A DNA stretch of 64,000 nucleotides from NCBI GenBank assembly GCA_016931955.1, contig JAFGDV010000022.1:35342-99341 (forward strand), written 5' to 3'. Origin of the DNA: Candidatus Altiarchaeota archaeon. GTDB taxonomy: Archaea > Altiarchaeota > Altiarchaeia > IMC4 > QMZM01. The position numbers and the translations under genes were made by a program. Shown here piece by piece: positions 46,998 through 54,741 of the stretch. Position 1 is the first letter of the stretch. Every line of letters starts with the position of its first letter. Below the pieces are notes generated by a model. The model was not told where the DNA came from, ran no database searches, and worked only from the letters and a program-made list of their open reading frames with translations.

Positions 46998-47168
46998 ATG
47001 GAAGTCGAAAACTGTTATGGATGTGGCGGGTGTGTGGCTGTGTGCCCAACGGGGGCGATAACTATCATAGAGGAAGTTGAGATAGACGCAGAGAAATGCG
47101 TTAAATGCGGCAGATGCGAACTCATGTGCCCTGCAGGCTTGATCAGGATAGATGGGAGTCAGCGATGA
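46998..47168 (+). CDS. 2x[4Fe-4S] ferredoxin (56 aa, manually read)
   Basis: 'CYGCGGCVAVCP' and 'CVKCGRCELMCP'. Its stop overlaps the GGR start (ATGA at 47165). Confidence 0.7.
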   Translation: MEVENCYGCGGCVAVCPTGAITIIEEVEIDAEKCVKCGRCELMCPAGLIRIDGSQR

Positions 47169-48340
47169 AAATAGAGGACGAATACGATGTCGTCGTAGTC
47201 GGTGCAGGTCCAGCAGGCTCGATGGCCGCCAGATTCGCGGCAGAGAAAGCCGGGGTCTTGGTCGTGGACAAACACAGAGAAATAGGCTCCCCGAAGAGGT
47301 GCGGCGAAGGGCTTGGGATAAGAACATTCTCCGAATTTAGCATTCCTGTAGATAGGCGCTTCATAAACCAAGACATTTATGGTTCGGTGATCTACGCACC
47401 AAACGGCAGAGAGGTTTCTATAAGATATGACGAGGTGATGGGCTACATCATAGAGAGGAAGATATTCGACAAATACCTTGCCACAGAAGCTGTTAGGGCT
47501 GGGGCAGCGGTTATGGCAGAATCCTATGCTACCCTCTGGATGGAAGACGGCAAACTCAAGGGGATTAAGTTAAGACGCCAGGGCGAGGAGCTGGATATAA
47601 GGTCGAGGATAGTAATAGCTGCGGACGGTGTGGAATCGCAGATAGCCCGACAGATGGGATTGAACACGACCGTGAATCCATATGACATGGACTCCTGCAT
47701 TGAGTATGAGATGTGTGGGATAGACTACAAAGACATGGACATGCTCCACATCTTTTTGGGGAACAAGATAGCGCCAAGGGGTTATGTGTGGATATTCCCA
47801 AAAGACGATGATCGGGCAAACGTTGGAATAGGGATCGCTGGCGATGTGGGAGAGACTGCGAAATACTACCTCGACAAATTCATCGCCGAACACCAGGGCC
47901 TAGCTGATGGGAGCATACTTGAAGTCAACGTTGGTTCGGTTCCAGTAGGCGGCTTCCTGGAAAACATGGTGAAAGACAATCTGCTGGTTGTAGGAGACGC
48001 TGCAAGGCAGGTGAATCCGATACACGGCGGCGGGATAAGTGAAGCCATGCATGCTGGAAGGCTTGCTGGGACTACGGTGGCGAAGGCTGTAAAAGAAGAC
48101 AACCTAGGAATACTGGGGGAATACAATGAAGAGTGGTGGTCTACAAAAGGCCTGAAGCTGAAGAAGGTGTTAAAGGTCAGGAACTTCACAGAAAAACTGG
48201 ATGATGAAGACCTGGACTATCTTGCAACAATCTGGTCGGGGGAGGACCTGATGGAGATAACTCGCGGAAACCATAAGACTGCATTCAAGAAAATAGTAAA
48301 GCACCCTAAACTGCTTAAGTGGGTTAAGAATTTTTTATGA
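47165..48340 (+). CDS. digeranylgeranylglycerophospholipid reductase (geranylgeranyl reductase); start trimmed to 'MKIEDEYDVVVVGAGPAGS'
   Basis: FAD-binding 'VVVGAGPAGS' at the N-terminus. GGR-family length. The upstream ferredoxin partner matches the known Methanosarcina arrangement. Confidence 0.85.
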   Translation: MKIEDEYDVVVVGAGPAGSMAARFAAEKAGVLVVDKHREIGSPKRCGEGLGIRTFSEFSIPVDRRFINQDIYGSVIYAPNGREVSIRYDEVMGYIIERKIFDKYLATEAVRAGAAVMAESYATLWMEDGKLKGIKLRRQGEELDIRSRIVIAADGVESQIARQMGLNTTVNPYDMDSCIEYEMCGIDYKDMDMLHIFLGNKIAPRGYVWIFPKDDDRANVGIGIAGDVGETAKYYLDKFIAEHQGLADGSILEVNVGSVPVGGFLENMVKDNLLVVGDAARQVNPIHGGGISEAMHAGRLAGTTVAKAVKEDNLGILGEYNEEWWSTKGLKLKKVLKVRNFTEKLDDEDLDYLATIWSGEDLMEITRGNHKTAFKKIVKHPKLLKWVKNFL

Positions 48341-48373
48341 AAAAAAGGGTATTAGTGGATTGCATCCACTAAA

Positions 48374-53186: not shown

Positions 53187-53220
53187 TTATCTTGATTCAA
53201 TCCAATCTTTCAATCATAGA

Positions 53221-54741
53221 ATGGCCCTTTACAATCTTTTGAGAAAAACTGAAAGCCTATGCCCAAGGTGCCTGGAAAAGATCCCGGCAGAACTGGTTGA
53301 AGAAGAAGGTAAGGTACTGATCAAAAAAGAGTGCCCTGAACACGGCAGATTCTCTGACATATACTGGAGCGATGTTGAAAACTACAAGAAGACGATAGAA
53401 TGCTGGAATAATGGAACGGGGGTGGAGAACCCAAGAACGAAGAGAAACAGGGGCTGCCCCTACGACTGCGGCTTATGTGAGGAACACATGAGTCAGACGG
53501 TCTTAGGCATAGTCGACGTAACCAACCGCTGCAACCTTAAATGCCCCATCTGCTTCGCAAACTCTGATTCCACTAAGAGGGTCTATGAGCCAACCAGGGA
53601 GGAGATAAGGGCGATGCTCCAGAATCTACGGGATAATAGGCCAATACCCTCATTCGCCCTCCAGTTCTCCGGCGGAGAGCCGACGATGAGAGACGACCTC
53701 CCCGAGCTCATAAAGATCGCGAAAGATGTTGGTTTCACCTACGTCATGGTGGACACCAACGGCATAAGGGTCGCAAGAGACGTAAAATACCTGGAGAAGT
53801 TGAAAGACGCAGGAATGAACTCCTTCTATCTGCAGTTCGATGGCTTAGACGATGAAATCTACGAGAAAACCCGCGGCGAAAGATTACTGAACACAAAACT
53901 CAAGGTAATCGAAAACTGCCGTAAATTAGGTTATAGGTGCGTTGTATTAGTCGCCACATTAATCAAGGGAGTGAATGACCACCAGGTCGGGGGCATAATA
54001 GAGTTCGCAATAAGGAACAGCGACGTCATATCATGCGTTAACTTTCAGCCAATCTCCTTCTCCGGCAAGGCATCGCAGATAGAGGTGAAGGACGGCCGGA
54101 TCACCACCTCAGAGTTCGTAAAACTAGTGGAAAAGCAGACTAAGGGGAAACTGATAGAAGAACACTTCTATCCAGTACCCTCGCTCGTACCCATATCTCG
54201 GTTCATCGGAGCATACAAAAAGAAGCCGGCCATACAGCTGAGCACACACCCATGCTGCGGAGTCGGCGCTTACCTTATAATCTACGAAGACCAGGAAGCC
54301 TTCCCAATAAATGACGTGATAAACGTGGGCAGACTCCTCGAGGTGCTAGATACAGGTGCCAAGAGATTGGAGGGTGAAAAAAGACTTATCAGCAACCTCA
54401 AAGACCTAAAGACTGCGACAGAAGTCTTAGGCGATGTCGTACATGCTATCGTAGACAAAAAGCTGCGAAAACTGATGATCGACATCCTAAAGAAGGGCAC
54501 AATCCATTCAGTGATGAACCTGCACCAAAACACTTTAATGATAGGCTGCATGCACTTCATGGACCCCTGGAACTTCGACATAGAAAGAGTGGAAAGGTGT
54601 GTTATACACTACGCCACACCAGACGGCAGAATCATACCCTTCTGCTCCTACAACAACATACACCGACAAGAAGTGGAGAGAAAACACTCAACCCCATTAG
54701 AGGAGTGGAAGAAAAAAAAGCTGCAAGAATTACTCTCCTAA
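53221..54741 (+). CDS. radical SAM enzyme with N-terminal Zn-ribbon/rubredoxin-like motif; candidate tetraether lipid synthase (Tes/GDGT-MAS-like)
   Basis: 'CNLKCPICF' CX3CX2C. N-terminal 'CPRC…CPEHG' and 'GCPYDCGLC' extra Cys clusters. Start trimmed to 'MALYNLL' to avoid overlapping the upstream gene. The Tes assignment rests only on architecture and neighbourhood. Confidence 0.75.
   Translation: MALYNLLRKTESLCPRCLEKIPAELVEEEGKVLIKKECPEHGRFSDIYWSDVENYKKTIECWNNGTGVENPRTKRNRGCPYDCGLCEEHMSQTVLGIVDVTNRCNLKCPICFANSDSTKRVYEPTREEIRAMLQNLRDNRPIPSFALQFSGGEPTMRDDLPELIKIAKDVGFTYVMVDTNGIRVARDVKYLEKLKDAGMNSFYLQFDGLDDEIYEKTRGERLLNTKLKVIENCRKLGYRCVVLVATLIKGVNDHQVGGIIEFAIRNSDVISCVNFQPISFSGKASQIEVKDGRITTSEFVKLVEKQTKGKLIEEHFYPVPSLVPISRFIGAYKKKPAIQLSTHPCCGVGAYLIIYEDQEAFPINDVINVGRLLEVLDTGAKRLEGEKRLISNLKDLKTATEVLGDVVHAIVDKKLRKLMIDILKKGTIHSVMNLHQNTLMIGCMHFMDPWNFDIERVERCVIHYATPDGRIIPFCSYNNIHRQEVERKHSTPLEEWKKKKLQELLS

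Follow-up and report, generated by a model that had tools for sequence, protein, structure and literature searches.

In Methanosarcina acetivorans the genes for a geranylgeranyl reductase (GGR, MA_1484), a ferredoxin (Fd, MA_1485) and the tetraether lipid synthase Tes (MA_1486) are adjacent, and this adjacency was one of three arguments by which the Tes candidate was chosen (Zeng et al. 2022, PMC8941075). MA_1486 forms glycerol dialkyl glycerol tetraethers (GDGTs) in M. maripaludis, only traces of macrocyclic archaeol were obtained with MA_1114, another homologue from Methanosarcina, and Tes alone converts only about 1% of the lipids in a heterologous host (PMC8941075). The M. jannaschii enzyme MJ0619, also termed GDGT-MAS, acts on a fully saturated substrate, works in vitro as a purified protein without partners, and yields both the macrocycle and GDGT (Lloyd et al. 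2022). Tes homologues have already been reported from Altiarchaeota (Zeng et al. 2022, PMC8941075). Isoprenoid GDGT-0 (iGDGT-0) and extended tetraethers were attributed to tes-bearing Ca. Altiarchaeum at Geyser Andernach, extended archaeol was reported for Altiarchaeota, and the tes genes of Guaymas and White Oak River Alti-2 metagenome-assembled genomes (MAGs) were discussed (Groninga et al. 2026, PMC13003381). Here we describe a stretch of 64,000 nt from a Candidatus Altiarchaeota archaeon MAG (the window, to which all coordinates refer), in which nine genes occupy 46.0-56.3 kb and include predicted Fd, GGR and Tes genes. The published Altiarchaeota lipid evidence comes from a different clade, Ca. 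Altiarchaeum, than the organism of the window. We consider it very probable that the region forms a lineage-conserved cluster serving late steps in the maturation of archaeal membrane lipids, in which Fd and GGR would saturate the lipid chains and Tes would couple them.

The gene at 53221-54741 (+) encodes a 506-aa radical S-adenosylmethionine (SAM) protein which scored 640 bits against the NCBIfam equivalog 'tetraether lipid synthase Tes' (NF045702, cut-off 450). It carries the domains PF23545 (Zn_ribbon_HMPTM) at the N-terminus and PF04055 (radical SAM, 101.2 bits), and aligned end-to-end with MJ0619 (PDB 7TOL; E 2.8e-164, query 7-498 to chain 22-513) with 50.6% identity over 488 aligned positions. 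The ATG at 53221 is the correct start, in agreement with the length of the GenBank protein and the starts of the homologues. MJ0619 has an N-terminal rubredoxin-like site (C9-X2-C12-X20-C33-X2-H36) and an N-terminal [4Fe-4S] cluster on C73/C77/C80 plus a His, followed by the radical SAM cluster on CX3CX2C and, at the C-terminus, a [4Fe-4S] cluster to which the labile Met439 belongs (Lloyd et al. 2022; 2026 review). Every mapped ligand of these four metal centres is conserved in the Tes of the window. The rubredoxin-like motif C-X2-C-X20-C-X2-H is formed by C14/C17/C38/H41, aligned to C9/C12/C33/H36 of MJ0619, and CX3CX2C by C104/C108/C111, aligned to C98/C102/C105. For the N-terminal auxiliary 3Cys+His cluster, C79/C83/C86 align to C73/C77/C80, and the invariant H89, aligned to H83, is the likely His ligand. 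At the C-terminal site M444 aligns to Met439 and C346/C460/C475 align to C338/C455/C470, their invariance suggesting that they are the Cys ligands of this cluster. All of these metal-site residues were invariant across an alignment of 30 homologues with identities down to 49%. The sequence-only reading of this DNA had proposed the gene as a candidate Tes on account of its extra N-terminal Cys clusters, and both the profile and homology scores and the auxiliary-cluster Cys pattern bear this out. By homology, the product of 53221-54741 is thus a full-length radical SAM enzyme of the Tes/GDGT-MAS type. It adds a new member to a known system, and its gene is the sole one of the Tes family seen in the window.

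Upstream of Tes, the window encodes a 56-aa ferredoxin (46998-47168, +; Fer4_7 (Pfam), 55.8 bits) for two [4Fe-4S] clusters, with two CxxCxxCxxxCP motifs at C6/9/12/16 and C34/37/40/44. It is followed by GGR (47165-48340, +), a flavin adenine dinucleotide (FAD) enzyme of the digeranylgeranylglycerophospholipid (DGGGPL) reductase type. The two genes share a 4-nt overlap, the Fd stop codon at 47166-47168 overlapping the GGR start codon at 47165-47167 (CAGCGATGAAAATA), which is the ATGA junction that had been noticed before. GGR scored 248.9 bits against the subfamily model TIGR02032 (cut-off 158.8) and 93.3 bits against PF22578 GGR_cat (cut-off 27), and it has the FAD-binding N-terminus VVVVGAGPAGS. 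Its best solved relative was the DGGGPL reductase of Thermoplasma acidophilum (PDB 3OZ2; E 7.7e-66, residues 6-366). Scores stayed under the cut-offs of the DGGGPL reductase equivalogs NF041160 (249.8 vs 780), NF041080 (209.4 vs 580) and NF041385 (106.9 vs 700), which were built for Thermoplasmatales, Halobacteria and similar lineages, and GGR was therefore filed at subfamily level, with its gene context as a further argument. The Fd is presumed to be the electron donor to GGR. The Methanosarcina-type pairing that the sequence-only reading had seen here holds, as the Fd is directly coupled to GGR and the pairing is documented in Zeng et al. 2022 (PMC8941075); that GGR activity needs the ferredoxin is known for MA_1484/MA_1485, as cited in that paper.

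From these assignments and from what is established for the protein families, a pathway can be proposed, beginning with two enzymes encoded elsewhere in the window, glycerol-1-phosphate dehydrogenase EgsA (13399-14409, -; NF002022, 435.6 bits, cut-off 413) and geranylgeranylglyceryl phosphate synthase (GGGPS, first ether bond; 12662-13402, -; TIGR01769, 225.3 bits, cut-off 161.55), which would start the diether lipid. Their genes overlap by 4 bp and lie 34 kb from the Fd-GGR/Tes region; this pair, too, had been recognized before, and both genes score above the NCBIfam cut-offs. Those other ORFs (open reading frames) of the window that were scanned yielded no further lipid genes. GGR, translationally coupled to Fd and fed by it, would saturate the diether phospholipid by hydrogenation, giving the phytanyl (archaeol-type) form. 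By homology to MJ0619, the radical SAM [4Fe-4S] cluster of Tes would then remove H from a saturated phytanyl chain at its terminal carbon, and the first substrate carbon would be parked on a sulfide of the C-terminal [4Fe-4S] cluster while the second chain is activated. Two rounds of H-abstraction by the 5'-deoxyadenosyl (5'-dA) radical would thereby create a C(sp3)-C(sp3) bond. The expected product would be macrocyclic archaeol, glycerol trialkyl glycerol tetraether (GTGT) or GDGT, with four SAM spent per GDGT, and the same Fd may also reduce the radical SAM cluster of Tes. Saturation is placed before coupling because Tes acts on saturated lipid in vitro; GGR would act upstream of Tes, which would give a functional reason for the two genes staying linked.

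The genes around Fd, GGR and Tes appear to form three transcription units, NaCaEx-Fd-GGR (+), UbiB-phasin (-) and MFS-AI-2E-Tes (+), as judged from strand and spacing. NaCaEx, a membrane protein of the Na+/Ca2+ exchanger family (46037-46996, +; PF01699, 145.3 bits), is the probable first gene of its unit, with a 1-nt gap between its stop codon and the Fd ATG. The minus-strand unit holds a UbiB/ABC1 atypical kinase-like protein (48712-50376, -; PF03109, 258.8 bits) and, 35 bp downstream of it, a 100-aa phasin-like protein (48374-48676, -; PF05597, 39.4 bits, cut-off 28.8; NF047773, 40.3 bits, cut-off 35). Between the convergent GGR and phasin-like genes is a hairpin (48341-48373, -) with a 9-bp stem and a U7 run on the minus strand (-11 kcal/mol, z -3.47, 0 of 200 shuffles folding as well), which looks like a terminator of the UbiB-phasin unit. 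UbiB and an MFS transporter (50447-51658, +; PF07690, 147.8 bits) diverge from a 70-bp spacer. The latter is the probable first gene of the third unit, in which 40 bp separate it from a 495-aa AI-2E family transporter (51699-53186, +; PF01594, 101.2 bits) and 34 bp separate the AI-2E gene from Tes, all on the same strand. Next to this unit is prolyl-tRNA synthetase (ProRS, 54878-56299, +; TIGR00408, 539.3 bits, cut-off 437), a housekeeping neighbour outside lipid function that serves as a control for inherited synteny. The sequence-only reading had listed UbiB, MFS and the radical SAM gene within 5 kb after GGR. These genes are real and lie where it had put them, but UbiB is on the minus strand, the distance is actually 6.4 kb, and the phasin-like gene and the AI-2E gene directly upstream of the radical SAM gene had been omitted. 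Tes, GGR, UbiB and AI-2E are identical to GenBank proteins (within MBN2014353-358) encoded on a 115.8-kb contig of the MAG, MFS shares a 90% cluster with MBN2014356, and the same sequence is present in the Logan assembly of SRR13394437.

For comparison, the window proteins were mapped onto the contigs that encode the nearest Tes homologues, here called close relatives, and a diverse set of 80 metagenomic Tes loci (40-50% identity, 685 kb of flank) was compared as well. A genome-collection scan by exact peptide words gave 67 further loci, hence mostly Methanobacteriaceae, which are used as a negative control and are uninformative on the close relatives. Variants of the order NaCaEx-Fd-GGR-(MFS)-AI-2E-Tes-ProRS are retained in relatives whose Tes is 58-73% identical. 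Locus L081 (Tes 71% identical) reads MarR-ABC-X-FtsX-FtsX-NaCaEx-Fd-GGR-MFS-AI-2E-Tes-ProRS on one strand. The window departs from this layout by its phasin-UbiB unit, which is inserted between GGR and MFS on the opposite strand. Also on a single strand, L082 (Tes 58% identical) reads ...NaCaEx-Fd-GGR-Tes-AI-2E-ProRS, with GGR ending 14 bp before Tes. The order is FtsX-FtsX-AI-2E-Tes-ProRS in L001 and L079 (61% identical); in L073-L076 (72% identical) UbiB (-) is divergent from GT2-MFS-AI-2E-Tes, where GT2 is a family 2 glycosyltransferase, and a convergent glycosyltransferase follows. None of these neighbours was found in L077 and L080 (60-63% identical). The closest relative of the window Tes in the GTDB set was L001, a Guaymas Basin 'Altiarchaeales' MAG, with 61-62% identity.

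At the level of single genes, the Fd orthologues upstream of GGR in L081 and L082 are 68-71% identical, the MFS orthologues in L073-L076 and L081 are 66% identical and in the same position, and the UbiB orthologue in L073-L076 is 67% identical and likewise divergent from its neighbours. AI-2E adjoins Tes in every Altiarchaeota-like locus that has AI-2E (L001, L073-L076, L079, L081, L082). ProRS is the next gene after Tes in L001 and L079; in L081 one small ORF intervenes, and in L082 the gene before ProRS is AI-2E. Among the diverse loci, Fd and GGR were within 2 kb of Tes in three of the 80 (L114 and L132 as Tes-Fd-GGR, L100 with an Fd-GGR fusion), compared to a rough chance expectation of 0.2-0.5 cases estimated from 1-3 GGR-family genes per ~2-Mb genome. 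A coupled Fd-GGR pair is found in L081, in L082 and in the unrelated L114 and L132, and in fused form in L100, likewise an unrelated lineage. In the 67 mostly Methanobacteriaceae loci no GGR, Fd, UbiB, MFS or AI-2E was found near Tes.

Some of these loci showed further features of their own. In L082, Tes (10001-11515) is 58% identical to that of the window while the flanking genes are 64-86% identical, and the order of Tes and AI-2E is inverted; this pattern may reflect a tes gene that was replaced or rearranged within a conserved block. In L073-L076 the Tes block is bracketed by GT2 and GT4/GT1 glycosyltransferases, and a GT2 gene is also near Tes in L080 (12648-13625), which hints that tetraether formation may be connected with the synthesis of glycolipid head groups; Altiarchaeum has been reported to contain glycosylated lipids. 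The unrelated lineages L124 and L142 encode a TrmB-like winged-helix regulator divergent from and directly upstream of Tes, and in L124 a phytoene-desaturase-like FAD oxidoreductase comes after Tes, both recognized by eye from N-terminal sequence. On L100 (SDBS01000796.1), a compact archaeal-type lipid cluster at 6549-13004 adjoins an RND efflux pump. It consists of the Fd-GGR fusion (493 aa), a 601-aa B12-binding radical SAM-like protein (by eye), Tes, a GGGPS-like protein and a UbiA-type prenyltransferase-like protein, and may belong to a bacterial host with archaeal-type lipid genes.

Four points weigh against a lipid-maturation cluster. Fd-GGR is not within 10 kb of Tes in L073-L076, L001/L079, L077 and L080, nor in the 67 control loci, and the Fd-GGR-Tes linkage is therefore recurrent but facultative. 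ProRS stays next to Tes with about the same fidelity as the lipid genes, and simple inheritance may therefore account for part of the conserved order. In the window itself, Fd-GGR and Tes are in separate units, with two minus-strand genes and two transporters between them. Finally, the sequence is compatible with GDGT, macrocyclic archaeol and extended variants alike as the product. The one locus for saturation and tetraether steps that the sequence-only reading had envisaged is thus upheld as far as both enzymes are linked, but it is divided into three units by two minus-strand genes and a hairpin.

A broader interpretation would take UbiB, MFS and especially AI-2E as working partners of Tes that extract, flip or present membrane lipids, bringing two chain termini within reach of a peripheral enzyme, and the whole 46-55 kb block as one tetraether-assembly module. 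We regard this as unlikely, with a small but real chance of being correct. AI-2E adjoins Tes in four gene contexts (58-73% Tes identity), in one of them in the reverse order, Tes-AI-2E. The divergent arrangement of UbiB and the MFS-AI-2E-Tes unit is shared by the window and the differently surrounded L073-L076, and UbiB homologues (40-46% identical) are located 1.2 kb or less from Tes in the unrelated metagenome lineages L124 and L149. The conversion of only ~1% of lipids by Tes alone in a heterologous host leaves room for helpers (PMC8941075), and the literature searched contained no link of UbiB or AI-2E to GDGTs. However, the Tes-ProRS adjacency, which is without functional meaning, is conserved almost as well, and outside the clade AI-2E was beside Tes in 0 of 147 loci. 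UbiB is missing from L081 and L082, and MFS is missing from L082, L001 and L079. MFS matches beside Tes in L111, L142 and L130, found with an ad hoc hidden Markov model (464 bits or less), were only 23-27% identical by BLAST and unspecific, and a specific MFS-Tes link outside the clade was rejected. Purified Tes needs no partners in vitro (Lloyd et al. 2022). Neither MFS nor AI-2E showed detectable similarity to known lipid flippases; a search of solved structures matched MFS only to the generic transporters MdfA, QacA and VMAT, and by sequence it gave no relative of AI-2E.

Ranked below it, and improbable in our view, is the more specific proposal that AI-2E, and more loosely UbiB and MFS, constitute an unrecognised tetraether accessory system that would extract or flip archaeol-type lipids and thereby let Tes join the chains of opposite leaflets, with Fd as a shared low-potential donor for GGR and the radical SAM cluster of Tes. 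Any role of UbiB, MFS or AI-2E in lipid maturation is thus a candidate role, suggested by gene order.

The UbiB/ABC1 protein has a hydrophobic C-terminal tail and scored 441.5 bits against the equivalog TIGR01982, less than the cut-off of 487.55. By these scores it is a member of the ABC1/UbiB family and was filed apart from the ubiquinone UbiB proteins. The UbiB/COQ8 family is tied to the handling of isoprenoid lipids (quinones), and plant relatives of UbiB act on plastoglobules, which resemble lipid droplets. Ubiquinone biosynthesis is not known to occur in archaea. The phasin-like gene had no homologue in any related locus examined, and we rejected it as part of a conserved module on this ground. 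The pairing of UbiB with a phasin-like protein is odd for an archaeon, and may merit a look given the plastoglobule-acting plant relatives.

AI-2E, with 495 aa, is longer than all its relatives (351-359 aa), and the difference is a lineage-specific Cys-rich insert of ~140 aa at residues ~125-260 with the motif C-x-D-G-x-x-N-x-x-E-x-G-x-D-C-G-G-x-C-x-P-C. Inside the insert lies a perfect in-frame tandem repeat of 69 bp (52137-52290, +; Tandem Repeats Finder, 2.2 copies, 100% matches, score 308). The independent Logan assembly breaks within this repeat, which makes its copy number uncertain. The gene at 8161-12660 (+) encodes a predicted surface protein of 1499 aa that has no Pfam match and carries two copies of the CGG-x-C-x-P-C module in its C-terminal ~150 aa, where they precede a Thr-rich linker and a membrane anchor. 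Neither the insert of AI-2E nor the matching module of the surface protein belonged to any Pfam family even at E <= 10. Their likeness suggests that a Cys-rich module was shuffled between a surface protein and a transporter loop.

With the lipid-maturation cluster as our preferred interpretation, the identity of its coupling enzyme still has to be weighed against two others. There is a low probability, below that of either proposal on the accessory genes, that the radical SAM protein is a Tes-family paralogue which does not form GDGT and makes only macrocyclic archaeol or acts on C25 'extended' archaeol, like the weak MA_1114. MA_1114 yielded only trace amounts of macrocyclic archaeol (PMC8941075), MJ0619 itself makes the macrocycle as well as GDGT (Lloyd et al. 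2022), and extended archaeol and extended tetraethers are on record for Altiarchaeota (PMC13003381). Against such a paralogue speak the score well over the Tes equivalog cut-off with all metal sites intact, the conserved Fd-GGR context of what is the only gene of its family seen in the window, and the attribution of iGDGT-0 to a tes-bearing Altiarchaeum (PMC13003381). A cofactor-modifying or other radical SAM enzyme, namely the 7,8-dihydro-6-hydroxymethylpterin dimethyltransferase of older annotation or a selenoprotein-type TrsS, is highly improbable. The pterin name survives in the Pfam domain Zn_ribbon_HMPTM and in one JGI homologue called a pterin methyltransferase, but the pterin methylase activity was not reproduced and MJ0619 was reassigned to GDGT-MAS (Lloyd et al. 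2022), and TrsS, the nearest alternative family, gave 413.5 bits, under its own cut-off of 490 and far under the Tes score.

Other parts of the window carry features of a different kind. In the region 15708-25000, a tyrosine recombinase (15904-17115) and a stretch of low GC content (33-40% vs ~47% elsewhere) come after a tRNA-Cys gene (15708-15783). Iteron-like TCTGACA repeats (18117-18223 and 21636-21790) flank a DUF3987 primase-like gene (19214-22069) in this stretch, which is probably an integrated plasmid or virus-like element. A search for an att direct repeat linking tRNA-Cys to the end of the element found none. At 31745-39597 (-) the window encodes a pair of predicted surface proteins of very large size (719 and 1880 aa), which have NosD/beta-helix and DUF2341 domains.

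The assignment of a lipid-maturation cluster gives specific identities to two proteins with generic GenBank labels: MBN2014358, a 'radical SAM protein', becomes Tes, and MBN2014353, an 'NAD(P)/FAD-dependent oxidoreductase', becomes GGR. It further places an uncultivated Altiarchaeota lineage among the likely producers of GDGT or macrocyclic archaeol, which bears on the assignment of sources to GDGT biomarkers in sediments. The Fd-GGR-Tes linkage, which in Methanosarcina helped to discover Tes, is found again in a distant phylum and in further uncultured lineages, and is thus usable as a genomic signature. As a new lead, the recurrence of AI-2E and UbiB as neighbours is only modest; they are candidates for explaining how the soluble or peripheral Tes reaches buried chain ends in vivo. 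The gene linkage is already known from Methanosarcina, and the current understanding of the pathway is unchanged.

Compared with the described systems, the Tes of the window is of the same length class as MJ0619 (PDB 7TOL, 7TOM) and has the same four-domain layout. It differs in that one of the adjacent Cys455/Cys456 of MJ0619 is a Val (C460/V461), and its host is an Altiarchaeota MAG, whereas that of MJ0619 is a thermophilic methanogen. GGR and the T. acidophilum reductase 3OZ2 both have an FAD-binding N-terminus and a GGR catalytic domain, and in contrast to 3OZ2 the GGR of the window has a dedicated upstream ferredoxin. The solved relatives of the UbiB/ABC1 protein in the UbiB/COQ8 (ABC1) family are COQ8A, COQ8B and mycobacterial ABC1 proteins. 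The earlier reports of Altiarchaeota tes genes (Zeng et al. 2022; Groninga et al. 2026) concern the same phylum-level host, but treat the presence and phylogeny of tes only; a description of the gene neighbourhood was not seen in them, and GGR is unmentioned in the text available of PMC13003381. The window shares with M. acetivorans MA_1484-1486 the same three functions in one neighbourhood and a small ferredoxin paired with GGR. The three genes of M. acetivorans are contiguous, whereas in the window Fd-GGR and Tes are 4.9 kb apart and separated by four genes (phasin-like, UbiB, MFS, AI-2E), of which two are on the opposite strand. A contiguous form like that of M. acetivorans does exist in the relative L082.

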